Positions 4,949-59,322 of a stretch of DNA of 64,000 nt are shown one piece after another. The stretch lies in the NCBI GenBank assembly GCA_964643955.1, contig CAZXUO010000002.1:44691-108690 (forward strand), given 5' to 3'. Position numbers and translations under genes: made by a program. The notes below the pieces were generated by a model. It saw only the letters and a list, made by a program, of their open reading frames with translations. It was not told the DNA's origin and made no database searches. This stretch comes from an uncultured Candidatus Saccharibacteria bacterium. Its GTDB lineage: Bacteria; Patescibacteriota; Minisyncoccia; Phycocordibacterales; UBA918. Position 1 is the stretch's first letter. The number at the start of each line of letters is the position of its first letter.

Positions 4949-5771
4949 CACACACGAAGACGAGAATACAATTTCGTACATGGCGCTGCAGGTGATCGCA
5001 GAGCTTCGCGAATTTTTGCGTGTTATTCGCTCGTGGGTCTATCTGTGGTTTCTCTCGGCGTTCGTCATATTCTCACTCGGATTCAAGTGGCTTCTCTGGC
5101 GCGAGTACTCTATACCGGTACCGTCGTTTGAGGAAGTTTCGTTTGCAGCGCGCATCCTGATACATATGACGGAATTTCTTGTGCCGAGTGGTGTAACGCT
5201 CGTGGCGACCAATCCTTTTTCTGCGTTTGCAGCGCAAGTGCTCGTCTCAGCGCTCGCAGCACTCGTCGTGACATTTCCATTTCTTCTTTTGCGGGTGGTC
5301 GCGTATCTCTCTCCGGCACTCTATGCAAGCGAGCGTCGAGGACTCATGCTCGTACTCGGATTCGCATCAGTGCTTTTCGCAGGAGGGTGCACCTTCGGAT
5401 ATTTTATTGTGCTTCCAACCACGCTCCATTTCCTCTACGGATACGTGGGCGCACTCGGCGCGGTGCCGTTCTTTTCAGTGACCGAATTCATCGCGCTCGT
5501 GGTCTCATTTACCTTGGTCGCAGGTGTGTGTTTTCTCTTGCCGATCGTTATGGTCTCTGTGACCGCGCTCGGCATTATCCCGCATACGTTTTGGTGGCGA
5601 TCGTGGCGCAGTGCGCTTTTGCTTTTCCTTATTGCCTCTGCGATAATTACTCCAGACGGTAGTGGTGTAAGCATGCTCTTGCTCGCGTCACCGCTCTCGA
5701 TTTTATATGGCGTGGGCGCAGGCGTGAGTTCGTGGACGCGCGCGCGTGCAGACGTGCCGTTATCAGTCTAA
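4938..5771 (+). CDS. tatC: Sec-independent protein translocase TatC
   Basis: LQVIAELREFLRVI matches the TatC N-terminal HLxELRxRL signature and is followed by six predicted TM helices. The track start at 4893 is non-ATG; ATGs at 4938 or 4980 are possible. Confidence 0.8.
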   Translation: MEPNTHEDENTISYMALQVIAELREFLRVIRSWVYLWFLSAFVIFSLGFKWLLWREYSIPVPSFEEVSFAARILIHMTEFLVPSGVTLVATNPFSAFAAQVLVSALAALVVTFPFLLLRVVAYLSPALYASERRGLMLVLGFASVLFAGGCTFGYFIVLPTTLHFLYGYVGALGAVPFFSVTEFIALVVSFTLVAGVCFLLPIVMVSVTALGIIPHTFWWRSWRSALLLFLIASAIITPDGSGVSMLLLASPLSILYGVGAGVSSWTRARADVPLSV

Positions 5772-20810: not shown

Positions 20811-20814
20811 AAAG

Positions 20815-20856
20815 AAAAAGCCGCTTTCAAAAAATACTTTTTGAAAGCGGCTTTTT
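20815..20856. terminator. Bidirectional intrinsic terminator between tkt (+) and the PfkB kinase (-)
   Basis: aaaaagccgctttcaaaaaatactttttgaaagcggcttttt. Confidence 0.7.
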
Positions 20857-21855
20857 CTAGATCTTCTTTGATACGTATTCTGTGGGAGCGTTTTTGAGGT
20901 GTTCAAGAAGTGATGCACGAGAGAGGAGGCCTTTTTGCGCACCGATTTCTTGCACCACTGACATGGAATTGATTGGTCCCCACGAGAGTGCGGTTGCAAC
21001 GGATTCACCGAGTGCGATTGCAGAGGTAAATGTTGAGGCGAATGAGTCTCCGGCGCCCGTGCGATCGACTGGCGGCGCAGGATCAGGGTACATCGGCATG
21101 TACCACGCGTCGTCGCCATCGAGTGCAAACGATCCGTTAGGGCCGTCGGTAACGACGGGCATCTTTGGGCCAAGTGCTTTTAATCCACGCAACAAGGTCG
21201 GTACATCTTCTTCTTCAGTTTCGAGTATTTGTTGCGCTTCCTCTTTGTTGCAGAAGAAAATCTCAGTGACGGCATAGAGATCTTTCAGCACCTCGCGACC
21301 GAGACGAATCTGAAATGTACCGGGCTGGAAGACGAGTTTTGTCTCAGGATGTTCCTTCACATACGTCGCAATCTCGTGATGGAAATCCATTGAGTCTTCA
21401 CCGACCGATGAGAAGTAGATGTAGCGTGGCGGCATTTCAAATGCGGGCAATCGATAGGGATACGTCTCATGCTTGATGAGAATAGTGCGCTCAGCGCCGA
21501 GTCGGAGCACGTAGTGGTAGTTCGTCTTTTTTCCTTCGTGCACTTTCACGTACTCAGTCGAAACGCCTTCAGTACGAAGTGCATCGAGACAGTCTTTGCC
21601 ATAGCGGTCGTGTCCAATATTGGTAATGATGGCACTTTTAAGTCCCAAGCGGTGCGCAGAGACTGATGCGTTTGGCGCATTACCAACCGCGTTTACGATC
21701 GTCACATCTTTGTATGGAAGCTTCTCACCGAAACTCATTTGGAGTTTCTTGCGACCTTTCGCGTCGGTTACGACCGACGCATCTTTTTCTGAGAGCTGAA
21801 TAAATGCATCGATGGTAATGTCGCCAATTGCGACGAAATCATATTGTTGCGCCAT
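20857..21855 (-). CDS. PfkB-family carbohydrate kinase (ribokinase-like)
   Basis: N-terminal FVAIGDITID and C-terminal TGAGDSFASTF anion-hole motif. Confidence 0.8.
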   Translation of the reverse strand: MAQQYDFVAIGDITIDAFIQLSEKDASVVTDAKGRKKLQMSFGEKLPYKDVTIVNAVGNAPNASVSAHRLGLKSAIITNIGHDRYGKDCLDALRTEGVSTEYVKVHEGKKTNYHYVLRLGAERTILIKHETYPYRLPAFEMPPRYIYFSSVGEDSMDFHHEIATYVKEHPETKLVFQPGTFQIRLGREVLKDLYAVTEIFFCNKEEAQQILETEEEDVPTLLRGLKALGPKMPVVTDGPNGSFALDGDDAWYMPMYPDPAPPVDRTGAGDSFASTFTSAIALGESVATALSWGPINSMSVVQEIGAQKGLLSRASLLEHLKNAPTEYVSKKI

Positions 21856-23683: not shown

Positions 23684-23690
23684 AGAATAC

Positions 23691-23723
23691 AAAAAGGCCC
23701 GCGCTTCGCGCGGGCCTTTTTGT
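23691..23723. terminator. Bidirectional intrinsic terminator
   Basis: aaaaaggcccgcgcttcgcgcgggcctttttg. Confidence 0.8.
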
Positions 23724-23726
23724 ATT

Positions 23727-25145
23727 CTATCCATACGCTAACTCGGGAGTGTTTCCGTAGAGCTCGCCAAATATTTTTTCAAGCTCGGGATGCTCGCCGA
23801 CGACGGCAATGATTTCAAATGGAGTTTTGTAGATGCGATTATTGGTGAGGCCGAAGGTATTGAGTACGGTATGGAGAAGTCGCGCGTTGAAGCCGATTTT
23901 GTGCATCATGCCCGTCATGCCGCGCGACGTAAATCCGCGATAGCCGTAGAGCATATCAAGCGGAGCGATTGGTCCTGCCGAAGTGGTATAGACGGTTTCG
24001 TCGATGCGATTTTCCATGTACGGTCCGAGCGAGCCAAGGTTCGGAGTAATGAGGATAGCGCAGCCGTCTTTTTTTAGGATGCGTTTTATTTCACCGAATA
24101 CTCCGGGAAGCTCGCCCCAAAATACATGTTCGATGATGTGACTTGCCCAGAGCATGTCTACTGATTGCGCAGGAATCATGTTCATCGAAGCGATATCGCC
24201 GAGTATGTCGGGGTTCGATGCCTCATCGTTGTCGTATCGAAGTTCTTTATAGTTGGCGAGCGCAGCGACATTGAGCGGCTCGTTGCCAGCGCCGATATTG
24301 AGAAGTATGGGTGTATCTCCTGAGAAAAGTGGAGCGATGTCGCGTCGCGTATCCGTATCAGCAAATTTATTCCAGAGCGGTCGGTAGTCGATGAATGGAT
24401 CGCGCTCGGTTTCGTACTGCATATGGAGGGCGAGCGATGGTATCGGCGTAAAGAGAAAATATCCGCGCTCTTGAAAAAGCTTGTTGATCGTATCGTCTTC
24501 CATCTTTGAATCAGTCTGATGCTTGGCTAACGCGCTAAAAAGATCATACTCTTTGACGAGCGTGTGGTGGTGGAGCATAAAGCACGACGCCGTCTGGAAA
24601 CTCGTGCGCCAATGCCGCTTGCCTGACTGCACGACACGCACGGGCACGATGTTTTCAGGTCGGTATCGGTACGGGTCGTTAAATGGATAGATAGCGACGT
24701 AGTTGCCAATTTTTTTGCTCGCGTCCCAAAACATCGCAATCATTTCAATGATCGCGGTTTCCTCGTAGAGATAATCATCCTGTGCAAAGTAGACGAGATC
24801 ACGCCCGTACGCTTTTCCGTATTCGTAGCATGCACTGATGCTTGCGAGTATTCCGGTTTCTTCAAGTGATGTGAGCTCAACACGAAAGAGCGCTTTCTCA
24901 AGATCTTTTTGGAGTGCTGTGAGATATGTCTCGTCGGAGTGATCATCAAAGATCTTGAGTGTTATTTCGACGTCCGGTGCATTGCGGAAGCAGTGGTTTA
25001 AGGTGTGGATGAGTGAACGTACGCAGCGCTTCGCGGTCTCGCATTTATCAGCGCCCGTGTAGCGACGTTCTGACATTCCGCGTACGCCCTGATACTGCTG
25101 GCTGTCTGCGCGTGAGTGTGTTTGGAGGACGACAAGTAGATGCAT
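23727..25145 (-). CDS. Bifunctional glycosyltransferase (GT-A, QDDY) and class I SAM-dependent methyltransferase fusion
   Basis: The N-terminal half is homologous to 10421..11170. The C-terminal half carries the LNIGAGNEP..DMLWASHIIEH..ELPGVFGEIKRILKKDG methyltransferase motifs I to III. Confidence 0.65.
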   Translation of the reverse strand: MHLLVVLQTHSRADSQQYQGVRGMSERRYTGADKCETAKRCVRSLIHTLNHCFRNAPDVEITLKIFDDHSDETYLTALQKDLEKALFRVELTSLEETGILASISACYEYGKAYGRDLVYFAQDDYLYEETAIIEMIAMFWDASKKIGNYVAIYPFNDPYRYRPENIVPVRVVQSGKRHWRTSFQTASCFMLHHHTLVKEYDLFSALAKHQTDSKMEDDTINKLFQERGYFLFTPIPSLALHMQYETERDPFIDYRPLWNKFADTDTRRDIAPLFSGDTPILLNIGAGNEPLNVAALANYKELRYDNDEASNPDILGDIASMNMIPAQSVDMLWASHIIEHVFWGELPGVFGEIKRILKKDGCAILITPNLGSLGPYMENRIDETVYTTSAGPIAPLDMLYGYRGFTSRGMTGMMHKIGFNARLLHTVLNTFGLTNNRIYKTPFEIIAVVGEHPELEKIFGELYGNTPELAYG

Positions 25146-26930: not shown

Positions 26931-27088
26931 GGTCTCCCCAATCACGAGACGAGTGCTCCAACCTCAAGAAAACATCGTCGTCTCCACGACGAAAAAACGA
27001 AACTCGACTGCGTCTCAAACAGTCGTTTTTTCTGTTTTGACTCCCTGTTTTCTAAAATGTTTCCGCAAGTCTCGTGATTGGGGAGACC
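26931..27088. mobile_element. MITE-like element: 158 bp with perfect 20-bp terminal inverted repeats flanked by a 6-bp direct repeat (TCGCTC)
   Basis: ggtctccccaatcacgagac (26931-26950) pairs with gtctcgtgattggggagacc (27069-27088). TCGCTC lies immediately outside both ends. The interior contains two further hairpins. No ORF is present. Confidence 0.5.
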
Positions 27089-30237: not shown

Positions 30238-30310
30238 GCCATCTTAGCTCAGTTGGTAGAGCAACGCACTTGTAATGCGTAGGTCGTCGGTTCGAATCCG
30301 ACAGATGGCT
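30238..30310 (+). tRNA. tRNA-Thr (anticodon TGT)
   Basis: Hand-folded cloverleaf: acceptor GCCATCT/AGATGGC, D arm GCTC-AGTTGGTA-GAGC, anticodon arm ACGCA-CTTGTAA-TGCGT, T arm GTCGG-TTCGAAT-CCGAC. Confidence 0.85.
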
Positions 30311-38604: not shown

Positions 38605-38625
38605 CATTCGGGTAGTAGTGGAAAT

Positions 38626-38658
38626 TAAAAACAGCCGCCCGAAGGGCGGCTGTTTTTA
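38626..38658. terminator. Strong bidirectional intrinsic terminator
   Basis: aaaaacagccgcccgaagggcggctgttttt. Confidence 0.85.
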
Positions 38659-38673
38659 TTTGTGTCAGTGAGA

Positions 38674-47143: not shown

Positions 47144-47198
47144 TACGCACGTCTTCTGACACTGGCTGAGACTCGCTCAGATTGAGCGGGAATCACCA

Positions 47199-47230
47199 CA
47201 AAAAACCGCCCCTCACGGGGCGGTTTTTTG
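47199..47230 (+). terminator. Intrinsic terminator
   Basis: aaaaaaccgcccctcacggggcggttttttg. Confidence 0.85.
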
Positions 47231-47310
47231 TTCATCTGGACTTTATGTGAATTTCGATATACTCTCTATGTCTTATTGAGGTTATACTGTGGATAGTTAT
47301 ACATGCGTGT

Positions 47311-47862: not shown

Positions 47863-49632
47863 CTATCCGAGTTTTTTTGTTTTGATTTCGGTGGTGAGGC
47901 GGGTGAGGAGGTCGGTGGTTCCGAGGACGACTGATTCATCTGCTCGTGATTCGAGGGTGACGGTCTTTGCTTCAACTTCCTTGTCACCAATGACGATGAA
48001 GTACGGGAGCTTGTCTTTCTTTGCGTTGCGGATTTTCTTTCCCATTGATTCGTTTGCGTCGTCGAGCGTCGCACGGATGCCTGCTTCTTTTAATTGCGTA
48101 AGCACTGCGTGTGCGTACTCGGTGTGCGCTTCTGCAACAGGAATGACGCGTACTTGTTCGGGAGAAAGCCAGAGTGGGAATGCGCCTGCGAAGTGTTCGA
48201 TGATCACGCCCATGAAGCGTTCAAGTGAGCCCGAGATCGCGCGGTGAATGACGACCGGACGCTCTTTTTCTCCCTTCTCATTGATGAAGGAAAGGTCAAA
48301 GCGCTCGGGAAGATTGAAGTCACACTGGATCGTGGAGAGCTGCCACTCGCGACCGATTGCATCCTTAAACATGAAGTCGAGTTTTGGTCCGTAGAACGAG
48401 GCTTCGCCTTCAACGCGTTTGTACGGGAGGTTATTTTCTTTTGCAGCTTCTTCAAGCGCTGTTTCTGCAGCATTCCAGACCTCATCATTTCCAAGGTATT
48501 GCGAACGATCATTGCCGCGCACAGAAAGGCTCACCCAGTACTCTTCAGCCATGTTAAAGACTGTATAAAATTCTTTGATGATGCCGACGATTGTCGCAAC
48601 TTCTTCTTTGATTTGTGATGAGCGGCAGAAAAGGTGGCCGTCATCTTGGGTAATCGAGCGGACGCGCGTGAGACCACCGAGTTGTCCAGATTTTTCATCA
48701 CGATAAACGGTTGCGGGTTCGAAGTAGCGGACGGGCATATCGCGGTATGAAAACTGATTGTCTGCGAAAATCTGCATGTGGTGCGGACAGTTCATGGGCT
48801 TCATGATGAACTTCTCTTCTTTTCCTTGAACACGGAAGAGCTCGTCACCAAATTTCTCTGCATGTCCTGAGGTCACATAGAGGGCTTCTTTTGCAATGTG
48901 AGGTGTCCAGACACGGCTGTAGCCCTTGCTCTTGTGGAGGTTCCAGAGATACTCCTCAATCTCACGACGCACGAGCGCGCCCTTTGGCTGGAGGAGTGGG
49001 AGGCCAGCGCCCACGAGCTCTGAATTGGTGAAGAGGCCGAGCTCTTTGCCGAGCTTCTTGTGGTCGCGCTTTTTGGCTTCTTCGAGCTGAGTCTGGTATG
49101 TATCGAGCTCTTCTTTTGTTGCAAAGGCGAGGCCATAGATGCGGGTGAGCATCGCATTCTTCTCATCGCCGCGCCAGTATGCGCCTGCGATTGTAGTGAG
49201 CGTGAATGCGTCCGCGCTTATTTCTTCGCTCGGGTGCTCTGAATGACCACCGCGGCAGAGGTCGGTAAATTCACCGACGGTGTAGAGGGTGATTGGTTCA
49301 TTGCGGGATTCTATTTCGGCGATGAGTTCGAGTTTGTACTGATTATCTTTGAAAAACTCTCGTGCTTCAGCGGCCGATACTTCTTTGTGGGTGAACTCGG
49401 TCCATTTGCCGATGGTCTTTCGCATCGTCTTTTGGATTTCTTTGAGATCGGCATCGCCGGGAGTTTCTCCGCCAGAGAAATCGAAGTCGTAGTAGAAGCC
49501 GGTGTCGGTTGCCGGTCCGATGGTGCGCTTTGCGTGCGGATAGAGCTTCAAGACCGCGTCGGCGAGTAAGTGGGCGAGTGTGTGGCGGATGTGTTCGAGG
49601 TTGTGTTCCATATATGTAAAGTGTTTGCTCAT
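47863..49632 (-). CDS. thrS: Threonine--tRNA ligase (lacking N-terminal TGS domain)
   Basis: Class II aaRS motifs, the HAVLTQLKEAGIRA anticodon-binding domain and the second-site editing domain region. Confidence 0.9.
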   Translation of the reverse strand: MSKHFTYMEHNLEHIRHTLAHLLADAVLKLYPHAKRTIGPATDTGFYYDFDFSGGETPGDADLKEIQKTMRKTIGKWTEFTHKEVSAAEAREFFKDNQYKLELIAEIESRNEPITLYTVGEFTDLCRGGHSEHPSEEISADAFTLTTIAGAYWRGDEKNAMLTRIYGLAFATKEELDTYQTQLEEAKKRDHKKLGKELGLFTNSELVGAGLPLLQPKGALVRREIEEYLWNLHKSKGYSRVWTPHIAKEALYVTSGHAEKFGDELFRVQGKEEKFIMKPMNCPHHMQIFADNQFSYRDMPVRYFEPATVYRDEKSGQLGGLTRVRSITQDDGHLFCRSSQIKEEVATIVGIIKEFYTVFNMAEEYWVSLSVRGNDRSQYLGNDEVWNAAETALEEAAKENNLPYKRVEGEASFYGPKLDFMFKDAIGREWQLSTIQCDFNLPERFDLSFINEKGEKERPVVIHRAISGSLERFMGVIIEHFAGAFPLWLSPEQVRVIPVAEAHTEYAHAVLTQLKEAGIRATLDDANESMGKKIRNAKKDKLPYFIVIGDKEVEAKTVTLESRADESVVLGTTDLLTRLTTEIKTKKLG

Positions 49633-49675
49633 AACGGTATCACAGGCCGCCGAAAACAGGAATGGAATCCCCTCA

Positions 49676-49870
49676 AAGAACCTTTCATGCTTTTAGCGAC
49701 CAGTCGTCGCCCCTGCGGGCTCCGCCTTGCGGTTTCGGCATGGACTTTGCTTTGCAAAGGCCATGCTCCATGCCTGCAAATGCTCTCTAAAAGCATGAAA
49801 GGTTCTTTGGTTCTTAATAATGTTGCTCTGCGTGGCTGTAGATGCTCGCAGAAGCTACATGCCGGTTTTC
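49676..49870. repeat. Structured palindromic element copy A (full, 49676-49808, with a perfect 22-bp outer inverted repeat) plus an adjacent truncated 3' fragment of a second copy (49821-49870)
   Basis: The outer arms aaagaacctttcatgcttttag and ctaaaagcatgaaaggttcttt enclose a core shared with copies B and C: a GCCCC-ygc-GGGC hairpin, cttGcggTTtCGg, a bulged hairpin and TGCAaATGCTC. Confidence 0.6.
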
Positions 49871-49871
49871 T

Positions 49872-52800
49872 CTATATCGCGGCGGGTTCTGCGTCGAGGC
49901 GGCGGACTTTTTCGACGACGATAGATGCTTGGCCGTTGCGATAGGAGAGGCGGCCTTTCACGGCGACGCACGTCTGCGGCGCGAGAATCTCGTGCTTGTC
50001 GCGGTAGAGATCAGAGAAGACGACCGTCTCGATACTGTGTTCCCAGTCAGCGAGCCGAATGAATGCCATGCGGTCGCCTTTCTTTGTCATGATCTCTTTC
50101 ACTTCTTCGATGAGACCGGCTGCGGTGACGGGAATACCTTCGCGTTCGTCGGTGATTATGTCACGGATGCTCAGGTATTTCTTCATCACTTCTTTGTGAC
50201 TATCGAGTGGATGACCGGAAATAAAGATGCCGAGGAGTTCTTTTTCCCAGAGCAGTTTCTGTGTGGAGGTGGCTTCGGGGACTGGTGCGAGTATAAGCTC
50301 TTCTTCGGGAGACGCCGCGAGCATGGAGAAGAGAGAGTCATGACCCGAGGCGAGCGTCGCGCCATGCTCGCGGCTGAATTCGAGGAGGCGTTCGAGATTG
50401 CCGATCAATGCGCCGCGCTCAGCGAAGCGATCAAAGGCACCTGCCATGATGAGGGACTCGAGCGATTTCTTGTTGAGGTTTTTGTTTTGGATGCGCTTCA
50501 AGAAATCAGCGAGCGAGGTGAAGGAGCCGTTTGCTTTTCGTTCTTCGATGATTGCGTGCGCGATACCTGCGCCGAAGTTTTTTATTGTCGTGAGGCCAAA
50601 GCGGATTTCTTTTTTGATACCGGCAGGATCAGGGACAACGGAGAAGTCCTCAAAGCTCTCGTTGATGTCGGGTGGCAACACCTCAATACCCATGCGGTTG
50701 CACTCATGGATGATCTCAGAAATTTTTTCAACGTCGCCTGAGTCTGCAGTGAGGACCGCTGACATGTATTCGACGGGATAGTTGGCTTTCATGTACGCCG
50801 TTTGGTACGCGACTTTTCCGTAGCTTGCGGCGTGCGCTTTGTTGAAACCGTACGCGGCAAATGGCTCGATGAGTTTCCAGAGCTTTTCCGCAACCGACGG
50901 CGTGAGTTTGCCGTATTCGACAAATCCTTTGAGCAGCTTCTCCTTTTCGGCGGCCATAACTTCAGGAATTTTCTTTCCCATCGCTTTGCGCAGCTTGTCG
51001 GCCTCGAGCCATGAGTAGCCGGCGAGCTCGCGCGCGATCATGAGCACGTCGTCCTGATAAGTGACGACGCCGTACGAGCGATCGAGGATTGTTTTGAGGC
51101 GTGGGTCGAGATAGGTGATGAGACTCGCATTGTGTTTGCGCTCGATGTATTGCGGAATAGATTCCATCGGGCCGGGGCGGTAGAGGGCGACCATCGCGTT
51201 GATGTCGTGGATTGAAGACGGGCGGAGGTCTTTGAGGAAGCGCGTCATGCCGGAGCCATTGAGCTGGAAGAGGCCGAGTGTTTCGCCGCGAGCGAGCATC
51301 TCGAAGGTCTTCTCGTCGTCGATCGGCACCTTTTCTATTTCTACGTCGATACCGCGGATTTTTTGTACGCGCACCACAGCATCAGCAAGAATCGAGAGGT
51401 TGGTGATGCCGAGGAAGTCGAACTTCAGCAAGCCGACGCCGTCTTCGCCGACGGCGTGCATGTCGTACTGCGTAATCATCTTTCCGCCGCCTTCTTCTTT
51501 GTCTGCTTTTGGATCGGGTTGGAGGGGGACGAAGTCGGTGAGTGGGGCGGGTGCGATCACGACGCCCGCAGCATGCACACCCACGTGCCGCACCCGCCCC
51601 TCTATTTTCTTTGCAAGATTAATAACCTCTTTCGTCTCGGCATCTTTTTTATAGAGCGTTGCAAGGTCGGGCTCGATCTCAAGCGCACGTGCGATGGTCA
51701 TCGGGAAGCCTTGTGAGCCCATCGGAATGAGCTTGGCGATGCGATCGCCGGTCGCGTACGGATAGCCGAGTGCGCGCGCGACGTCGCGCACGACGGCGCG
51801 CGCGAGCATTTTTCCGAAGGTGCCGATCTGCGCTACTTTGTCCGCGCCGTACTTTTCTTTTGCATATTCGATGATCTCATCACGGCGGTTGTCAGCGTAG
51901 TCCATGTCGACGTCAGGCGCGGACGGACGTTCAGGATTGAGAAAGCGCTCAAACGGAAGTTTGTATTCAATGGGGTTTACATTTGTAATACCAAGCACGT
52001 ACGTGACGAGTGAGCCCGCGACCGAGCCTCGAATGGTTGTGAGGATTTTGCGCTCGCGTGCTTCTCGCAGAAGGTCTCCCACGACGAGGAAGTATTTTGC
52101 ATAGCCTTTCATCTTGATGACCGAGAGCTCGTACGCAACGCGCTCTTTGATGATCGGATCTTCAGGATCGAGTCCACGCCATGCAATACCTTTATATGCG
52201 AGATCTGAGAGCTCATCGTCGGGTGTCTTGCCGCTCTCAATGATGTAGTTGGGGAAATACCACGTACCGATTTCGATTTCGACGTTGCATGCATCGGCAA
52301 TCTTTACGGAATTCTCGAGCGCTTCAGGAATATCTTTAAAATACTCGGCGGCGTGCGCTTGAGTGATGAATGAGAAATTTTCATCACGTTCGTCAAATTC
52401 GTTGGTCGTTTCGACGGTACCACCAGTCTGAATCTTCACCATCGTCTCGCGCGCGAGACGATCCTCCGGCTTTATGTAATAGACATCATGTGCAGCAACG
52501 AGTGGTACGTCGGTGTGCGAAGCAAGGTCACGGATTTTCTGCTGCAGCTCCATGTGGCCCGGGATCTCGGGGTGGTGTGTGATCTCAAGATAGAGATCAT
52601 TTCCAAAAATAGATTTGTACCATGCGAGGTGCGCATGGGCGCGCTCTTGATCGTCTGCCTTCAGTGATTGTACCGGTTCGCCGGCAAACGAAGGGATGAT
52701 GCAGATGAGATCGTCTTTGTATCGCTCGATGAGCTCGCGGTCGAGGCGAGGTCGGTAGTAAAAGCCGTTGACGTACGACTCCGTCACGAGCTTGATGAGG

Positions 52801-53102
52801 TTTTTGTAGCCCGCGGTTGTCTTTGCCAGGAGGACGATGCGGCTGCGCGGCTTGTCGATCGAGGCTTCGCGATCAAAACGCGTACGTGGTGCGAGGTATG
52901 CGTCGATGCCGATGATTGGTTTGATATCTTCGTCAACGCAGGTCTGGTAGAAGTCGACGGCGCCGTAGAGATTGCCGTTGTCGGTGAGTGCGAGCGCGGT
53001 CATACCATCTGCTTTTGCTGCAGCGACGAGCTCGTCGACGGTCGGGAGAGCATTGAGGAGGGAGTAGTGGCTGTGGGTGTGGAGGTGGATGAAATTACTC
53101 AT
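49872..53102 (-). CDS. dnaE: DNA polymerase III alpha subunit
   Basis: PHP domain at the N-terminus, polymerase core, and OB fold; 1076 aa. Confidence 0.95.
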   Translation of the reverse strand: MSNFIHLHTHSHYSLLNALPTVDELVAAAKADGMTALALTDNGNLYGAVDFYQTCVDEDIKPIIGIDAYLAPRTRFDREASIDKPRSRIVLLAKTTAGYKNLIKLVTESYVNGFYYRPRLDRELIERYKDDLICIIPSFAGEPVQSLKADDQERAHAHLAWYKSIFGNDLYLEITHHPEIPGHMELQQKIRDLASHTDVPLVAAHDVYYIKPEDRLARETMVKIQTGGTVETTNEFDERDENFSFITQAHAAEYFKDIPEALENSVKIADACNVEIEIGTWYFPNYIIESGKTPDDELSDLAYKGIAWRGLDPEDPIIKERVAYELSVIKMKGYAKYFLVVGDLLREARERKILTTIRGSVAGSLVTYVLGITNVNPIEYKLPFERFLNPERPSAPDVDMDYADNRRDEIIEYAKEKYGADKVAQIGTFGKMLARAVVRDVARALGYPYATGDRIAKLIPMGSQGFPMTIARALEIEPDLATLYKKDAETKEVINLAKKIEGRVRHVGVHAAGVVIAPAPLTDFVPLQPDPKADKEEGGGKMITQYDMHAVGEDGVGLLKFDFLGITNLSILADAVVRVQKIRGIDVEIEKVPIDDEKTFEMLARGETLGLFQLNGSGMTRFLKDLRPSSIHDINAMVALYRPGPMESIPQYIERKHNASLITYLDPRLKTILDRSYGVVTYQDDVLMIARELAGYSWLEADKLRKAMGKKIPEVMAAEKEKLLKGFVEYGKLTPSVAEKLWKLIEPFAAYGFNKAHAASYGKVAYQTAYMKANYPVEYMSAVLTADSGDVEKISEIIHECNRMGIEVLPPDINESFEDFSVVPDPAGIKKEIRFGLTTIKNFGAGIAHAIIEERKANGSFTSLADFLKRIQNKNLNKKSLESLIMAGAFDRFAERGALIGNLERLLEFSREHGATLASGHDSLFSMLAASPEEELILAPVPEATSTQKLLWEKELLGIFISGHPLDSHKEVMKKYLSIRDIITDEREGIPVTAAGLIEEVKEIMTKKGDRMAFIRLADWEHSIETVVFSDLYRDKHEILAPQTCVAVKGRLSYRNGQASIVVEKVRRLDAEPAAI

Positions 53103-53153
53103 GTGGAGACATTATAGCGCGATTAAAAAGAATCGCAGATAATCATCGCTTTA

Positions 53154-53292
53154 GAAAAACCACCACATGTTTGGGGACCGTATCATGTTCCAGCGAACAT
53201 GATACTTCGGCTTCGGCTCGCACTTTTGTTCAAGAAACAAAAGACCGTGCTGCGAGCCTGCAGATGCTCCCCAAACATGCAGTGGTTTTTCC
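53154..53292. repeat. Structured palindromic element copy B, occupying almost the whole dnaE/rnhB divergent intergenic region
   Basis: Outer arms aaaaaccaccacatgtttgggga and tccccaaacatgcagtggttttt. The core has a gtatcatgttcc-agc-gaacatgatac hairpin, CTTCGGCTTCG, a bulged hairpin and CTGCAGATGCTC. Confidence 0.6.
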
Positions 53293-53314
53293 GTCCTTCA
53301 GATACAATACTTTG

Positions 53315-53899
53315 ATGTTTATTATTGGTGTGGATGAGGCGGGGCGGGGGGCGCTTGCGGGGCCGGTGTCCGTTGGGGTTGCGCTCGTGCCGCGAGATTT
53401 TGATTGGGCGCTCATCCCGGGTGTGCGTGACTCGAAACAGCTTTCAGAAAAGAAACGAGAAGAGATATTTCTCCGCGCACGCACGCTTCAAAAAGAAGGA
53501 GTGCTCGAGTATGCTGTCGCACTCGTCTCTGCAGCTATCATCGATCAGCGAGGAATAACGACGGCGGTCCGCATCGGGATAGCGCGTGCACTTAAAAAAC
53601 TTTCGCACAATATTGATGACGTTGAGGTGCGCCTCGACGGGTTACTCCATGCGCCAAAAGAATATATCCGCCAGCAGACAATCATCCGCGGCGATCAGAC
53701 TGAACCTGCTATCTCGCTCGCGTCGATCATGGCTAAAGTCACGCGCGATCGACACATGGTCGCGCTCGCGAAGAAGTATCCAGCGTATGCCCTCGAGGTT
53801 CATAAAGGATATGGGACGCTTGTACACCGCGAGAGCATCCAGAGAGATGGTATTTCAGATATCCACCGCCGATACTTTTGCCGGTTTGCCAACAATTGA
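53315..53899 (+). CDS. rnhB: Ribonuclease HII
   Basis: MFIIGVDEAGRGALAGPV catalytic DEAGRG motif. The track start at 53171 lies inside element B and is rejected. Confidence 0.9.
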   Translation: MFIIGVDEAGRGALAGPVSVGVALVPRDFDWALIPGVRDSKQLSEKKREEIFLRARTLQKEGVLEYAVALVSAAIIDQRGITTAVRIGIARALKKLSHNIDDVEVRLDGLLHAPKEYIRQQTIIRGDQTEPAISLASIMAKVTRDRHMVALAKKYPAYALEVHKGYGTLVHRESIQRDGISDIHRRYFCRFANN

Positions 53900-53978
53900 C
53901 GACGGGTGTAGAGTCTTGTCTAGTACCTTCTCGCGCGGGGAAGCGAGGGAAGGATGTATAGCATCGGGGGAGTAGAGT

Positions 53979-54224
53979 ATGTCTTTTCTTTCGAAGAAAC
54001 CCTCTCCAAAGGAGATGGACTGGAGGGAGGAACTTCGCGCGGCCAGCCTTCATGGCTGCGCACAGTGTCCCTACGCGGGACGCATCACAGGCACGGGCAT
54101 AAACGCCTCCTGCTATTGCGGTAATCCGCCGCAAGAGGTCTCGGAGACGCGTATTCCGGGCCTTATCTGGATCACTCAGGCACTCCGGTGCCCGGAGAAC
54201 CAGGGGGTCGCTGTTGCGGCCTGA
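53979..54224 (+). CDS. Small Cys-rich (putative zinc-binding) protein
   Basis: CAQCPYAG..CYCG..C pattern. RBS GGGGAG. Confidence 0.35.
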   Translation: MSFLSKKPSPKEMDWREELRAASLHGCAQCPYAGRITGTGINASCYCGNPPQEVSETRIPGLIWITQALRCPENQGVAVAA

Positions 54225-54328
54225 AGGATGATGGGCGACGCGGGGGTTTTCATACCCCTGCGCCAGCCTTTTTTGTTTATAGGGGTTCTATTGCCAATTA
54301 ATGCTTATTTTGTTATAGTCTTGCCACT

Positions 54329-54691
54329 ATGGTAGTACGAATGCGTCACAACCGGTCTCAGACCGCAAATCGCCGATCTCACCACGCGCTTAAGGCGGCA
54401 ACTATGGCGACGTGTGCAAACTGCAGCGCACTCCACCGCCCACATCACATGTGTCTTTCATGCGGCTTTTACAAGGGTCGTCAGGTGATGGATCTTGCGG
54501 GTGAGAAGGCAAAGCGTTTGGCTCGTATCAAAGCAAACAAAGAGCGTGCACGCGCTGACCTCTCGTCAGCTGCAGCTCCCGCAGTAAACGCTGCTGCACC
54601 TGCTCATGATCACGATCATGCACACGATGAGCACGCAGGACACGATCACGATCATCCGCACACACACGGAAGTGAGAAAGGAGAGAAATAA
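54329..54691 (+). CDS. rpmF: Ribosomal protein L32 with ~60-aa C-terminal Ala/His/Asp-rich extension
   Basis: RRSHHALK..CANC..HHMCLSCGFYKGRQV zinc-ribbon L32 core, then ...HDHDHAHDEHAGHDHDHPHTHG. Confidence 0.7.
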   Translation: MVVRMRHNRSQTANRRSHHALKAATMATCANCSALHRPHHMCLSCGFYKGRQVMDLAGEKAKRLARIKANKERARADLSSAAAPAVNAAAPAHDHDHAHDEHAGHDHDHPHTHGSEKGEK

Positions 54692-54710
54692 TTTTTCGAT
54701 AATCCACACC

Positions 54711-54732
54711 AAAGCCCGCATCTGCGGGCTTT
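54711..54732 (+). terminator. Intrinsic terminator after rpmF
   Basis: aaagcccgcatctgcgggctttgtgcttt. Confidence 0.6.
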
Positions 54733-54778
54733 GTGCTTTCTATACGTGCTAGGATGAGACCAGCGAAACGCATTCTGT

Positions 54779-55684
54779 ATGGCAAACCGGCACCTTTCGA
54801 GAAGTATTGTTCTCCAATCACTCTTTGAATGGGATCTTAATAATGTAGGTAAGAGCGACGTACGCGACGTCCTCGACCGAAACGTCTCCGAGTTTGCACC
54901 CAATAAATCTGACATGCCGTTTATGGAACGGCTCCTTGATGGTGTATTGCAGAAGCAGAAGGAGCTCGATCTTGTGATCGAAAAAGCAGCACCGGAGTGG
55001 CCCATCGATCGCATCTCGCCAGTTGATCGTAATATCCTCCGCCTCGGTCTTTTTGAGCTTCTGTTTTCAGATCGCAAAGAGGTACCGGCAAAGGTGGCGA
55101 TCAACGAAGCGATTGAACTCGCGAAGCAGTTTGGCGGCGATAATTCTGGGCGCTTCGTCAACGGAGTACTCGGTGCGGTATATAAAGAAATCGGTGAGCC
55201 GGGCAAGGAAGAAAATTCAAAGCGTAAGCAACGCAATGTGCCGTATGAAGAAATGCCGGTCGAGCACCTCGTCGGTGCCGTAGTGTACGCAGAAGAGGGT
55301 GACGACATGCATCTTGCACTCGTGCACGATATTTTTGGACATTGGACTCTCGCAAAGGGTGGCGTAGAGGATGGTGATGATCTCGAGGCGGGCGTCGTGC
55401 GAGAAATAAAGGCAGAGCTCGGACTCGACATTGTTGTCGAACAAAAGCTTGGGGAAAATGAGTACGTCGCATCTGACCCAGAAAAGGGAAAGAAGCGAAA
55501 ACACGTGACCTATTTCCTCGCGAAAGCGAAATTTGAAGAGATTCGTCTTGAGAAAAAGGGTGGTCTCGATGACGCACAGTGGTTTAAAATCGCGAAGATC
55601 CTTGAACTCAACTTTTATGAGGATATTCTGCCGATTGTGACCAAGGCGGTGACCATGCTTGTCGGAAGAGGCAGAACATCGTAG
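54779..55684 (+). CDS. nusB: NusB antitermination factor fused to a C-terminal NUDIX hydrolase domain
   Basis: NusB-like N-terminus (SIVLQSLFEWDL..RNILRLGLFELLF..AINEAIELAKQFGG). C-terminal Nudix box GGVEDGDDLEAGVVREIKAELGL. Confidence 0.7.
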   Translation: MANRHLSRSIVLQSLFEWDLNNVGKSDVRDVLDRNVSEFAPNKSDMPFMERLLDGVLQKQKELDLVIEKAAPEWPIDRISPVDRNILRLGLFELLFSDRKEVPAKVAINEAIELAKQFGGDNSGRFVNGVLGAVYKEIGEPGKEENSKRKQRNVPYEEMPVEHLVGAVVYAEEGDDMHLALVHDIFGHWTLAKGGVEDGDDLEAGVVREIKAELGLDIVVEQKLGENEYVASDPEKGKKRKHVTYFLAKAKFEEIRLEKKGGLDDAQWFKIAKILELNFYEDILPIVTKAVTMLVGRGRTS

Positions 55685-55695
55685 ACTCCATTCGT

Positions 55696-56397
55696 ATGAC
55701 AGATACTGCAACCTTTAAGAGACTCGAGCAATTGCTCGGAGTCTCGTTTTCAGATACGACCTACCTGCTCTCGGCTATTACGCACCGTTCATTTCTTAAT
55801 GAAAATAGGGATGCCGTGCAGGAGCACAATGAGCGCCTCGAGTTCCTCGGAGACGCGGTACTTGAGCTTGTGGTGACGGACTATCTTTTTAAGGAGTTTC
55901 CAAAGAAAGCAGAAGGCGAGCTCACGGCTATTCGTGCGGCGCTCGTAAACACCAACACACTCGCTGAGACGGCGACGACGCTCGGCATCAACGAGTATCT
56001 CTTGCTTTCAAAAGGCGAGTCGAAGGATGTGGGGCGCGCGCGGCAGTATATTCTTGCAAATGCGTTTGAGGCTATCGTCGGTGCTATTTATCTCGATCAG
56101 GGGTACGATGCCGCGCGCGATTTCATCGCATCGCAGCTTTTCAACAAGACCGAGCGCATCGTCGAGAAGCGCCTCTGGCAAGATGCAAAGAGTCGTTTTC
56201 AGGAGCGCGCGCAGGAGATGGTTGGCATTACGCCCGCATATCAGACTTTGAAGGAAGTGGGTCCTGACCATGATCGTATGTTTACGGTTGGTGTATTTCT
56301 CGGAGAGGAATGCGTTGCGCAAGGCGATGGTCGTGCGAAGCAGGAAGCTGAACAAAAAGCAGCGGAGAATGGGTTGGCGGCGAAGGGGTGGGGGTAG
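55696..56397 (+). CDS. rnc: Ribonuclease III
   Basis: HRSFLNE..NERLEFLGDAVLELVVTDYLF RNase III signature with a C-terminal dsRBD. Confidence 0.9.
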   Translation: MTDTATFKRLEQLLGVSFSDTTYLLSAITHRSFLNENRDAVQEHNERLEFLGDAVLELVVTDYLFKEFPKKAEGELTAIRAALVNTNTLAETATTLGINEYLLLSKGESKDVGRARQYILANAFEAIVGAIYLDQGYDAARDFIASQLFNKTERIVEKRLWQDAKSRFQERAQEMVGITPAYQTLKEVGPDHDRMFTVGVFLGEECVAQGDGRAKQEAEQKAAENGLAAKGWG

Positions 56398-56402
56398 GGG
56401 AC

Positions 56403-56534
56403 GGAAAGTCAGTGCACTATGCGACCGCGTGCGCCCCAGCGGGCGCTCGCTTCGGCTTCGCCGCACACTTTTTTATTACATAAAAAAGACCATGCTGTGC
56501 GGCTGCAGATGCTCGCATAGTGCACAAACTTTCC
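56403..56534. repeat. Structured palindromic element copy C, between rnc and smc
   Basis: Outer arms ggaaagtcagtgcactatgcga and tcgcatagtgcacaaactttcc. The core has a gcgcccc-agc-ggggcgc hairpin, CTTCGGCTTCG, a bulged hairpin and CTGCAGATGCTC. Confidence 0.6.
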
Positions 56535-56619
56535 TATTTTGAATGCATAAGTTTACAGCGAAGAGCTTTCTCTTCATGCGTCTATAAAAGTTTTTTAGAG
56601 CGATGCTAGAATATACACT

Positions 56620-58908
56620 ATGTATTTAAAGGGGCTTGAGATAAGTGGGTTTAAGTCTTTTGCGAAAAAGGCGGATCTTGAGTTCCTGACGCCGATCACG
56701 GCGATTGTCGGTCCCAATGGTTCGGGCAAATCAAATGTAGCTGAGGCGTTTCGTTTTGTGCTCGGTGAGCAGTCGGTGAAGTCGATGCGTGGGAAGAAAG
56801 GTGAAGATCTCATCTGGGGTGGCTCTCCAGCGCTTGCACGTTCAAACCGCGGCTCGGTGAAGATTGTGCTCGACAATGAGAAGCGCGTATTTCCGGTCGA
56901 TTTTGACGAAGTGACAGTGGAACGTGTCGTACATCGCGATGGTGTGAATGAGTATTCGATCAATAATTCGCGTGTACGTCTCAAGGATGTGCAGGAGCTT
57001 CTTGCAGCAGCAAACATCGGTCCGACGGGGCACCATATCATTTCGCAAGGCGAAGCCGATCGTATCCTTTCGTCGAGCCCCAAGGAACGTCGCGAGATGA
57101 TTGAAGATGCGCTCGGACTGAAGATCTATCAATACAAAAAATCAGAGAGCGAGAAGAAGCTCGAGAGGACGAAAGAGAATATTGCGCATGTTGAGTCGCT
57201 TCGAAAAGAAGTGCAGCCACACCTTCGTTTTCTCGAGAAGCAGGTAAAGAAAATAGAGAAGTCGATTGAGCTTCGCGACGCGCTCGCTGAGCAGTACGTC
57301 GTATATCTCAAGCGCGAGGAGCTTTATCTCGAACACAATGCTGCGCGACTCGCCGATGCACGCAAGGCACCTGAGGCAGAGCGCGCGCAGCTTGAGCGTG
57401 AGCTTGCGCACGCAAAATCGGTACTGACAAAGGCCGAAAAAGATGAGAAGCGCGATGCACTCGTTTCGCTTGAGGAAAAACTTGCAACGCTCCGCATAAA
57501 GCGGCAAGAGGTACTACGAGAAAGTGGGCGCGTCGAAGGACAGCTCGGATACCTCGAGCGTTCAGTTGCAGAACATGCGCGCAAGCGCGAGCGAGAAGAG
57601 CGCGGCCCTATTGCGTATGCTGACGTGAAGCGCGCGATTGATTCGGTTGAAGAGGCGGCTCAAAAAGCAGAGACGATTGCTGACGTCATGAGCTTGCGTA
57701 AGGTGATCGAGGGTATCATGCGCACACTTCGCTCATTCCTCAACGAGACCGCGCGCACTGAACATTTTGATGCGGAGCGCGAGCGTATCGAGACGGAGCT
57801 TTTAGAATTAAAGAAAGAGAAGACTAAAAATGATGAGGTGCTCGCAGCTGTCGAAAAAGAGGAACGTGTGCTCGGTGAGGAATATAGTGCGCTCAAGGCT
57901 TCAATTGAGGCGGAGACGCATGAAAGTCGCGCTGCAGAACACGAAGTTTTTCGCATCATGGGCCGCCAGCGAGAGCTCGCAGAGATTTTAAATACGATCG
58001 ATCGCGAGACTGAGATTCTTGCGCGCGACAAGGAAGAATTTTTGCGCGAAGTGCAGGAAGCAATTGTGCTCATTGGTCGTGAGACGGCAGGGTATAAAGA
58101 TCGGACGACCGACAGTGACGGGCACGCACTCCAAGTGAGCGAGATTGCAAAGGAAGACCGTTCGGTCCAGCATGGCCGCCGTCGTGAACTTGAGAAAATG
58201 AAGATACGCCTCGAAGAGCTCGGTGGGAGCGGCAGCGAAGAGGTGATGAAAGAATATAAAGAAGTGAGTGAACGTGATGCATTTCTTACACGCGAAATCG
58301 CCGACATGGAGCAGTCGGTCGTGACGCTCGAGGCGCTCATTGCAGACCTCACGGCACAGCTCAACGAACATTTTGTCGCAGGTATTGAGAAAATTGGTAC
58401 GGAATTCAATCGATTTTTCATGCTCATGTTTGGTGGTGGTTCAGCTGCGCTCGAACGCGTGAAGCCGGTGGTGCGAAAAAAGAAAAGCGATCTTTCCGCG
58501 CTCTTTGAATCAGGAGACGAGGTTGAAATGGAGGAGTCGCAAGAGGAAGTTGAGGAGGGAATCGAGATCGATGTAAAGCTTCCAAACAAGCGCGTGCGCG
58601 GTCTTGAGATGCTTTCGGGAGGTGAGCGTGCGCTCACGTCGATTGCGCTTATCTTCGCAATGAGTCAGGTCAATCCGCCGCTCTTTGTGATTCTTGATGA
58701 GACTGACGCAGCACTCGACGAGGCAAATAGCCGTCGCTATGGTGACATGATCGAATCGCTTGCAAAAAAATCACAGCTTATTCTCATCACGCACAACCGT
58801 GAGACGATGAGTCGTGCAGGTGTACTCTACGGTGTAACGATGGGAAGCGATGGTGTATCGAAATTGCTTTCAGTGAAACTTGAGGAGGCGGTCGCGGTCG
58901 CGAAGTAA
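56620..58908 (+). CDS. smc: SMC-family chromosome segregation ATPase (short, 762 aa)
   Basis: Walker A GPNGSGKSN, long coiled coil, signature LSGGERALTSIAL and Walker B LFVILDETDAALD. Confidence 0.7.
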   Translation: MYLKGLEISGFKSFAKKADLEFLTPITAIVGPNGSGKSNVAEAFRFVLGEQSVKSMRGKKGEDLIWGGSPALARSNRGSVKIVLDNEKRVFPVDFDEVTVERVVHRDGVNEYSINNSRVRLKDVQELLAAANIGPTGHHIISQGEADRILSSSPKERREMIEDALGLKIYQYKKSESEKKLERTKENIAHVESLRKEVQPHLRFLEKQVKKIEKSIELRDALAEQYVVYLKREELYLEHNAARLADARKAPEAERAQLERELAHAKSVLTKAEKDEKRDALVSLEEKLATLRIKRQEVLRESGRVEGQLGYLERSVAEHARKREREERGPIAYADVKRAIDSVEEAAQKAETIADVMSLRKVIEGIMRTLRSFLNETARTEHFDAERERIETELLELKKEKTKNDEVLAAVEKEERVLGEEYSALKASIEAETHESRAAEHEVFRIMGRQRELAEILNTIDRETEILARDKEEFLREVQEAIVLIGRETAGYKDRTTDSDGHALQVSEIAKEDRSVQHGRRRELEKMKIRLEELGGSGSEEVMKEYKEVSERDAFLTREIADMEQSVVTLEALIADLTAQLNEHFVAGIEKIGTEFNRFFMLMFGGGSAALERVKPVVRKKKSDLSALFESGDEVEMEESQEEVEEGIEIDVKLPNKRVRGLEMLSGGERALTSIALIFAMSQVNPPLFVILDETDAALDEANSRRYGDMIESLAKKSQLILITHNRETMSRAGVLYGVTMGSDGVSKLLSVKLEEAVAVAK

Positions 58909-59286: not shown

Positions 59287-59322
59287 GAAAAACACCCGCG
59301 GCCTCCGGCCGCGGGTGTTTTG
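59287..59322. terminator. Intrinsic terminator between rnr and the ACT gene
   Basis: aaaaacacccgcggcctccggccgcgggtgtttt. Confidence 0.7.

Follow-up and report, generated by a model that had tools for sequence, protein, structure and literature searches.

The 64,000-nt stretch of DNA analyzed here (the window: positions 44,691 to 108,690 of contig CAZXUO010000002.1, from an uncultured Candidatus Saccharibacteria bacterium) carries, in the spacers around dnaE and behind rnc, three complete copies (A, B and C) and the remnant of a fourth of an intergenic element of about 135 nt. The element is widespread, strand-specific and strongly covarying, with a conserved junction nested in long helices that differ from locus to locus. 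Judged by their sequences, A, B and C appear to be old, diverged paralogs of an uncatalogued structured family. The explanation that we favor, and to which we give an even chance, is that of a dispensable, probably mobile or gene-converted structured module that occupies the apex of intergenic palindromes and functions as a single strand. RNA is our choice over single-stranded DNA (ssDNA) for the nature of that strand, and we hold it with middling confidence: a large invariant unpaired core, a branched fold and a tolerance for expanded loops all suggest a folded RNA.

Fold, covariation and the copies in the window

Read on the minus strand of the window, the element folds as a three-way junction of an outer helix (P1, 17-28 bp, locus-specific), a second helix with an invariant bulge (P2) and a variable hairpin (P3). 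From 5' to 3' on that strand one meets the 5' arm of P1, the joining segment J1/2 (GAGCAUYUGCAG), P2a (7-8 bp) with a 7-nt bulge, GCAYGGY, on its 5' strand only, the hairpin P2b (CUUU.../...AAAG), the 3' strand of P2a, J2/3 (CGAARCCGAAR), P3, whose GCWG loop is closed by C-G, J3/1 (GGUC) and the 3' arm of P1. Junction and bulge together comprise about 35 near-invariant bases. In some members insertions of 60-100 nt have entered the loop of P3 or of P2b, and the core is kept. (Variants with about 95 nt inserted in P3 are found in L014 at 2216-2445, L008 at 4687-4919, L055 at 8247-8479, L022 and L023, L numbers being our own handles for the sequences compared; the insert has conserved hairpins of its own, e.g., CCACTCATTGGATATTTAT...ATAAATATCTCAATGAGT and GUUCAUGUAAUGAAAC, and these variants may constitute a sub-family with an extra domain.)

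The evidence for this fold is comparative. RNAalifold, applied to 22 copies aligned with MAFFT, yields 38 pairs, and compensatory double changes are seen in 29. In a larger alignment of 40 copies (36 distinct rows), 96.8% of the cells in the distinct copies hold standard pairs, as against 75.7% in shuffles, none of which (0/500) reaches the observed value; double-sided changes occur in 30 of the 38 pairs, and pairing falls to 38-50% once the partners are displaced by 1-3 columns. Compensatory changes beyond those of controls, the generic mark of a structured noncoding RNA motif, are thus present. There is an additional pair within the junction, between the Y of J1/2 and the R of J2/3: it is U-A in 18 copies and C-G in the other 18 (36/36), and it has switched independently between copies that are otherwise nearly identical. 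(An entire helix between J1/2 and J2/3 was also considered and rejected: only the Y-R pair varies on the minus strand, the other proposed pairs being invariant or mismatched.) Individually, A, B and C fold far better than dinucleotide shuffles of themselves (z = -8 to -10.7; 0/200 shuffles equal), and an independent Logan assembly of the same strain holds B and C, which are therefore not artefacts of assembly.

The preliminary description of this DNA had recognized three copies and a fragment as diverged representatives of one architecture, and places and architecture both hold up. The outer inverted repeats (29 nt at 93% complementarity in A, 24 nt at 92% in B, 22 nt at 91% in C) enclose 78-90 nt; the inner hairpin differs in sequence between copies and retains its pairing in each; the conserved motif CTGCAGATGCTC has 19 matches with up to 2 mismatches in the window, where 7.2 are expected, and four of the five best (up to 1 mismatch) belong to A, the fragment, B and C. 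A covariance model run over the 64 kb finds A, B and C and nothing else at E<=1. The proposal that selection acts here on secondary structure, and that this is no ordinary miniature inverted-repeat transposable element (MITE), is likewise borne out: the 36 distinct copies covary strongly, the outer arms are only 23-47% identical, and neither a target-site duplication nor a match in Rfam was found. The bulge, described as GCA(Y)GG(Y)C, is indeed conserved, but it does not lie on the plus strand, which reads GRCCRTGC.

Copy A (49674-49809, minus strand; 114.5 bits, E 8e-30 by the covariance model) lies between the stop codon of dnaE (49872) and the start of thrS (49632) and runs in the direction of both genes. 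Its P1 is a perfect helix of 23 bp (49674-49696 with 49787-49809) around a core at about 49697-49786, and its motifs are the variants CTTGCGGTTTCGG and CTGCAAATGCTC. Next to it, adjoining the dnaE stop codon, is the remnant of a fourth copy (49820-49866, minus; inverted-repeat family D4), which is not matched by the covariance model at E<=1. On the minus strand it retains the 5' arm of P1 (CCGGCATGTAGCTTCTGC), the junction segment GAGCATCTACAG, the 5' strand of P2a (CCACGCA) and the start of the bulge, and it ends abruptly beside copy A. It had been called a 3' piece, which is right for the plus strand; on the working strand it is a 5' piece, broken within the P2 bulge.

Copy B (53154-53291, minus; 118 bits, E 8e-31) stands between the divergent genes dnaE (start at 53102) and rnhB (likely ATG at 53315), and occupies 138 of the 212 nt of this spacer, which is short of the nearly complete filling first claimed for it. 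The 3' arm of its P1 (working strand) is at 53154-53177 and pairs over 24 bp with the 5' arm at 53268-53291, which ends about 22 nt from the rnhB ATG; two mismatches on the plus strand become G·U pairs when P1 is read on the minus strand. All further parts are also given on the minus strand: P3 (53180-53205) is an 11-bp hairpin, GUAUCAUGUUC-GCUG-GAACAUGAUAC, with the C-G-closed GCWG loop of the family; J2/3 (53206-53215) reads CGAAGCCGAA, its R base covarying perfectly with the Y of J1/2; P2 (53215-53258) consists of an 8-bp P2a (53215-53222 with 53251-53258), the invariant 7-nt bulge GCACGGU (53244-53250) and, within the same limits, the P2b hairpin CUUUUG../..CAAAAG; J1/2 (53259-53269) reads GAGCAUCUGCA, near-invariant across the family. 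(A technical note: the automatic gene call places the start of rnhB at an ATG inside copy B, at 53264 of the window and 569 of L029. Homology to RNase HII starts at the ATG at 53315 (MFIIGVDEAGRG), so that copy B causes a 5' over-extension of the rnhB annotation.)

Copy C (56403-56534, minus; 123.4 bits, E 2e-32) begins 5 nt past the stop codon of rnc (56397) and is antisense to rnc and smc; its 22-bp P1 (56403-56424 with 56513-56534) surrounds a core at about 56423-56514. The genes flanking the copies in the window are thrS, dnaE, rnhB, rpmF, nusB-NUDIX, rnc and smc.

Distribution, turnover and the outer helix

More than 60 relatives of the element were found in assemblies of Saccharibacteria and Parcubacteria. 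When one genome per species was scanned for the exact pattern, 28 loci came up, all of them in assemblies of the Candidate Phyla Radiation (CPR): Candidatus Saccharibacteria, Parcubacteria and metagenome-assembled genomes (MAGs) designated only as unclassified "bacterium." A scan of metagenomes added about 21 confirmed copies. A single MAG can supply several loci, and many copies stand at contig ends, as is to be expected of multi-copy repeats. Homologs of rnc and dnaE at 79-80% identity bear Kaiserbacteria-like source names, by which the window would stem from a Kaiserbacteria-like Parcubacterium. The family is spread, in several copies per genome, through the CPR/Patescibacteria (Saccharibacteria, Parcubacteria and Kaiserbacteria-like genomes).

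Known families do not account for it. Rfam 15 in gathering mode finds a single match in the whole window, a tRNA at 30238-30310, and nothing overlapping A, B or C on either strand of 49400-56800 at E<=10; the suggested search of Rfam thus turned up no known family at either level. BLAST of phage and plasmid collections gave no match to the element, and among viral contigs the core pattern gave one chance match, which the covariance model did not confirm. In viral contigs no match was found to the exact P1 arms of B and C, which speaks against a role of P1 as a spacer-like guide targeting known viruses. No description of the motif was found in the published literature searched.

Copies tend to cluster locally on the same strand: the window has three and a remnant within 7 kb and none in its other 57 kb, and L054 has two on the same strand 700 nt apart (5437-5589 and 6299-6431). 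A counter-example is L047, with two copies on opposite strands. (In Saccharibacteria the repeat unit is a mosaic of modules: the copies in L002, L005, L007, L009, L011, L013, L019 and L021 have, 40-130 nt away on the plus side, a second recurrent hairpin module, GGGCTGTATTT...AAATACAGCC, followed by a nested bidirectional terminator (GTGCCGAAAAAGCCTCTGCAGAGGCTTTTTCGGCAC), and the mismatches of this second module are G·U on the same strand as in the main element.)

The gene order of the window, thrS-dnaE-rnhB-rpmF-nusB-rnc-smc, is kept in relatives with 79-85% identity in rnc or dnaE, and permits a direct inspection of the three sites. The covariance model finds no copy at any of them in L030-L033, L037 and L065; the rnc-smc spacer measures 0-102 nt in relatives lacking copies vs. 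222 nt in the window. L064 does have a copy at site B, placed in the rnhB-dnaE spacer in the same orientation, with an entirely different P1 and a reduced P3; the dnaE proteins of the window and L064 are 82% identical. In a strain with a 95% identical RNase III, site C holds a rearranged remnant that shares 26 nt with copy C (TGCTGTGCGGCTGCAGATGCTCGCA), has another outer stem and lacks P3 and one half of P2. The second copy of L054 is decayed, like the window's remnant at 49820-49866. These absences and decayed copies imply that the element is dispensable at a given site and turns over quickly. Neither a target-site duplication nor an inverted target duplication was seen at the copies, and the arms of P1 are not recognizable singly in the empty sites of relatives. 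An exact empty/filled pair was not obtained: the dnaE search gave no full gene above 82% identity, and the contigs with 95% identical rnc offered no clean empty site. (These syntenic contigs have other peculiarities. The smc of L030, at 1789-5751, encodes 1320 aa in place of the 762 aa in the window and contains an intein with a LAGLIDADG endonuclease domain; L037 has, at 1884-5288, a 1134-aa open reading frame (ORF; Peptidase_S74, faint Kelch matches) between dnaE and rnhB, that is, in the spacer of copy B; and NusB carries a fused NUDIX hydrolase domain (301 aa, window 54779-55684) in the window and in all relatives examined.)

What is conserved, and what belongs to the locus? Between A, B and C the junction and bulge are 84-97% identical, while P1 (23-47%), P3 (27-54%) and P2a (38-62%) are near random, as expected of old paralogs constrained at their unpaired bases and not of recent products of transposition. 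A sharper case is provided by L054 and L059, which come from one metagenome. Here BLAST aligns a block of 104 nt at 92% identity that is exactly the core, in which P2b has undergone three fully compensated double substitutions; the perfect P1 arms of 21-27 bp and all flanking DNA are unrelated. Identity confined to the core implies that the core is the unit that is copied or homogenized and that P1 belongs to the locus.

The locus appears well supplied with suitable helices. Plain perfect palindromes with stems of 15-26 bp, loops of 1-5 nt, A-rich 5' and T-rich 3' ends are found in the window (20813-20858, 23684-23728, 38623-38661, 47198-47231 and 59289-59321) and in every related Parcubacteria contig examined (among them L031, L033, L051, L054, L064 and L065), and P1 of A, B and C has their length and polarity. 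Two orthologous palindromes, L064 6374-6429 and L065 5419-5464, have kept the outer stem and rewritten the apex, with pairing still perfect. At site C, L031 has a plain hairpin after rnc, GGAAACGG.../...CCGTTTCC; the L031 hairpin ATGGAAACGG.../...CCGTTTCCAT stands 12 nt past the rnc stop codon, where the window has GGAAAGT...core...ACTTTCC, copy C, 5 nt past the stop. At site A, plain hairpins of 17-26 bp are found in L031, L033, L064 and L065. The simplest description of these comparisons would be a structured core in the apex of a plain terminator-type palindrome. The direction of change may be either one: the core may have been inserted into existing hairpins, or plain hairpins may be what is left after loss of the core. 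It was observed early on that the outer arms differ between copies and remain complementary, and this stands; slow compensatory drift need not be the whole cause of it, as P1 resembles the plain palindromes of these genomes and can be unrelated between two copies with cores 92% identical.

The working strand and the explanations of the element

The plus strand had been taken as functional, and in this respect the preliminary description must be reversed. The minus sense folds better in 25 of 26 complete copies, with a mean gain of 8 kcal/mol. In the model pairs, G·U outnumbers A·C by 38 to 6 (mostly in P1; counted from the per-pair table), and the separate P1 stems of Parcubacteria type (B, C, L054, L059 and L003), counted by reading, have 7 G·U and no A·C. 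Internal loops of tandem G·A, rich in purines, occur on the minus strand only, in P3 and at the foot of P1 in Saccharibacteria. Strand-biased deamination of cytosine would enrich G·T on the G-rich coding plus strand, which is the opposite of what is seen; the asymmetry thus points to selection on the minus-sense strand. The evidence favors the window's minus-strand sequence as the functional single strand.

That strand is also preferentially oriented. Of 27 scorable genes that neighbor the structured strand at its 5' end, 21 are encoded on the other strand (p=0.006), and at its 3' end the figure is 20 of 33; the four intergenic classes (11, 7, 2 and 2) are consistent with a structured strand that is antisense to the prevailing direction of genes. 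In 11 cases the element is at most 20 nt from the stop codon of an opposite-strand gene. In the window, where 44 of 53 ORFs and a positive GC skew mark the plus strand, it is the minus strand that is structured in A, B and C alike.

The preferred explanation, a module in the apex of palindromes that acts as a single strand, can be set out in five parts: 1) the conserved core of about 90-100 nt would be the unit that is copied or homogenized between loci; 2) P1 would be supplied by the locus, from the same class as the long palindromes of bidirectional-terminator type; 3) the junction would be a recognition or active center for a factor acting in trans; 4) P1, as an RNA duplex of the length of an RNase III substrate, might clamp the core or direct its processing (RNase III is encoded in the window, by rnc); 5) the module would be selfish or semi-selfish, gained, lost and decaying on short timescales, and its surviving copies would be mostly antisense to host transcription, as sense copies could disturb host mRNAs.

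Several observations weigh against this explanation. In the Saccharibacteria locus L021 the order is map stop codon, 11 nt, element, second hairpin module, bidirectional terminator, promoter, next gene; as read from this arrangement, the element would surely be transcribed as a 3' untranslated region (UTR), and in the sense opposite to its better fold. Plus-sense transcription as 3' UTR clashes with selection on the minus-sense fold unless there is a separate antisense transcript, and a scan near the copies revealed no convincing minus-sense promoter upstream, counts being no higher than in shuffles. The same conflict is the main reason why an ssDNA explanation survives. The aligned upstream regions of 40 copies have no universal motif; some Saccharibacteria subgroups share TAAGTTTTGCATT-like upstream stretches, which are not readable as a promoter. 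P1 of copy B, moreover, is separated by only some 22 nt from the rnhB ATG, and an orientation bias with respect to genes or replication is more typical of elements acting as ssDNA. With stems at near-random identity, none of A, B and C is a recent insertion, and among Saccharibacteria copies P1 is 57-97% identical, so that there P1 appears to travel with the core. Finally, no mobilizing enzyme, no target-site duplication and no exact empty/filled pair with identical P1 was found, so that movement is only inferred, and gene conversion between fixed copies could yield the same core-only identity.

A more daring version of the preferred explanation is a long shot: that the junction (GAGCAUYUGCAG / CGAARCCGAAR / GGUC, with the GCAYGGY bulge) is the active center of a new small catalytic or self-mobilizing RNA of hammerhead-like topology, with GUC at the P3/P1 boundary, which colonizes, in CPR bacteria, the loops of terminator palindromes between genes and survives mainly in antisense because sense copies would cut host mRNAs.

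The most durable of the alternatives, though somewhat unlikely, makes the element DNA: a mobile or recombination element that is not autonomous, that is recognized through its folded minus strand by a structure-specific enzyme and that would insert into the exposed loops of extruded intergenic palindromes. With the same reserve, candidates for the enzyme would be an HUH/Y1 transposase (as for REPIN and IS200/IS605), an IS110-type recombinase or an integrase (as for attC). Strand asymmetry cannot separate RNA from ssDNA, as G·T wobbles and tandem G·A are tolerated in DNA hairpins as well, and an orientation bias relative to genes and replication, as in replication-coupled ssDNA elements, is more naturally explained in this way. 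In chromosomal integrons the recombinogenic attC strand is on the leading-strand template, which is the polarity of the present element too. Core-only identity within unrelated palindromic flanks, the lack of terminal repeats and target duplications, and clustered same-strand copies with remnants would also fit, as would the precedent of REP palindromes, into which insertion sequences are known to insert (PMC1525189). Against all this, no transposase, recombinase or reverse transcriptase recurs near the copies. Clustering of the ORFs within 3 kb of 28 copies gave only spurious ORFs overlapping the element and no recurrent transposase, reverse transcriptase or other partner. There is no conserved target motif before the core, the last bases of P1 being GC, CC, GG, AG, CU, CA or UU, although cleavage of the IS200/IS605 type needs one, and IS200/IS605 elements, in which the lagging-strand template supplies the active strand, would lead one to expect the other strand to be the structured one. 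Some 35 invariant bases left unpaired, a junction of three helices and tolerance for large insertions in loops are more in the manner of a folded RNA.

Might the copies instead be ancient, immobile small-RNA genes or RNA modules with a function for the host, kept alike by gene conversion and repeatedly lost? We think this unlikely. It accommodates the conservation of junction bases from Saccharibacteria to Parcubacteria, the near-random stems of A, B and C as old paralogs, and the occupancy of site B in two genomes with dnaE proteins 82% identical, and conversion tracts would stop where homology stops, at P1. It is at odds with the six syntenic relatives that lack all three copies, with a copy C already rearranged in a strain with 95% identical rnc, and with the commonness of remnants and of near-identical copies numerous enough to break MAG assemblies; nor is a promoter or terminator of the element's own evident.

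A cis-regulatory or processing signal for dnaE, rnhB, thrS, rnc and smc is suggested by the concentration of three copies and a remnant in the 7 kb that surround dnaE and rnc, the other 57 kb having none, by the occupancy of site B in L064 too, and by the position of copy C, 5 nt past the rnc stop codon. We nevertheless consider it very improbable: the element is missing from most relatives in which the gene order is the same, its neighbors in other genomes are unrelated, with no recurrent flanking protein family, and the structured strand of copy C is antisense to rnc and smc. The link to replication and RNA-processing genes that had been suspected dissolves in the larger sample for the same reasons, and a role as a specific regulator of dnaE or rnc is not supported. 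The probable promoter elements of the genes lie outside the element: TATAAT-like boxes stand 7-12 nt before the ATG of dnaE (TATAAT, 53103-53120), rnhB (TACAAT, 53297-53315) and smc (TAGAAT, 56595-56620). (Such short spacing suggests that mRNAs with no leader, or a very short one, occur in this genome.)

An ordinary MITE that merely happens to fold is hardly credible, for although the element is small, without an ORF, present in several copies and bounded by long terminal inverted repeats, these repeats are its least conserved part (23-47%) and the interior junction its most conserved (84-97%), A, B and C are flanked by no direct repeat, and wobble pairing is strand-specific. (The window also contains a genuine MITE, at 26931-27088: perfect 20-bp terminal inverted repeats (GGTCTCCCCAATCACGAGAC), a 118-nt interior unrelated to the present family, a 6-bp direct repeat, TCGCTC, at its flanks, and a fold with z = -8.5.)

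Significance and comparison with known systems

The CPR/Patescibacteria have tiny genomes with little non-coding DNA, and yet genomes in at least two of their major classes carry several copies of the element. That some 35 junction bases are nearly invariant and the helices are free to vary is the reverse of what is seen in transposon-derived repeats, and is typical of RNAs with a catalytic or protein-binding center. If the core truly moves, or is homogenized, among intergenic palindromes, this would be a new mode of spreading for a small structured module in bacteria; it would be relevant, too, to the question of why the terminator hairpins of these genomes are so unusually long and perfect. 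A practical consequence is that the element breaks MAG assemblies and misleads gene callers, as in the case of the rnhB start called inside copy B.

The element shares with the CREE/NEMIS repeats of Neisseria its intergenic location, a size of about 100-150 bp, multiple copies, an inverted repeat around a conserved core, and presence or absence from strain to strain. The terminal repeats of CREE are conserved in sequence and flanked by TA duplications; here, the outer arms are locus-specific, there is no duplication, and constraint is on the bases of a three-way junction with covarying inner helices. CREE are co-transcribed with neighboring genes, and their hairpin is bound or cut by RNase III (PMC2649163). 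Like REP, BIME and REPIN sequences, the element is a dispersed intergenic palindrome, often placed after genes, with strand-specific hairpins; REPINs evolve within genomes as small mobile DNA (PMC3116915). REP sequences are 20-40 nt long, conserved in sequence and tied to RAYT, while the element's own palindrome, P1, is unconserved and encloses a conserved, branched core of about 90 nt. In the test for a REP/REPIN sequence, made on the 64 kb of genome at hand, the palindrome arms proved unconserved.

Integron attC sites likewise put structure over sequence and have a strand-specific folded strand, important unpaired bases and a center of variable length. Unlike attC, the ends of A, B and C lack the R''/R' core sites (RYYYAAC/GTTRRRY), and there is no cassette array and no integrase to be seen; the genes between the copies are syntenic housekeeping genes that are also present in relatives without the element. 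Two further candidates were considered and rejected: a retron msr-msd RNA, there being no recurrent neighboring ORF family (the neighbors in the window are thrS, dnaE, rnhB, rnc and smc), and a PATE-like IS200/IS605 mini-element, as the bases before the core vary and the structured strand is opposite to the G-rich, gene-rich one.

In length (17-28 bp), in its A-rich 5' and T-rich 3' ends and in its location close behind stop codons, P1 resembles the long bidirectional intrinsic terminators of the same genomes. Plain terminators have loops of 1-5 nt and G+C-rich apices; the element has a structured core of about 90 nt as its loop. It is in this core that one sees a likeness to the hammerhead and other small three-way-junction RNAs (e.g., the aptamers of purine riboswitches): three variable, covarying helices, conserved junction strands and tolerance for insertions in loops. 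The resemblance to the hammerhead extends to a GAA in J2/3 and to J3/1, in which G-GUC directly precedes P1 and brings to mind the GUC cleavage triplet, but the CUGANGA box is absent, and GAGCAUYUGCAG takes its place. No ribozyme or riboswitch model scores on the element at E<=10. A riboswitch would be a poor fit in any case: a P1 of 17-28 bp is far too long and stable to switch, the genes nearby vary and mostly lie on the other strand, and none is found consistently downstream. The element lacks defining features of each known family that was tested. By analogy, its closest relatives in behavior would be the repeats of the Correia, REP and REPIN type (PMC2649163, PMC1525189, PMC3116915), and in the logic of its conservation, RNAs centered on a junction, such as the hammerhead.

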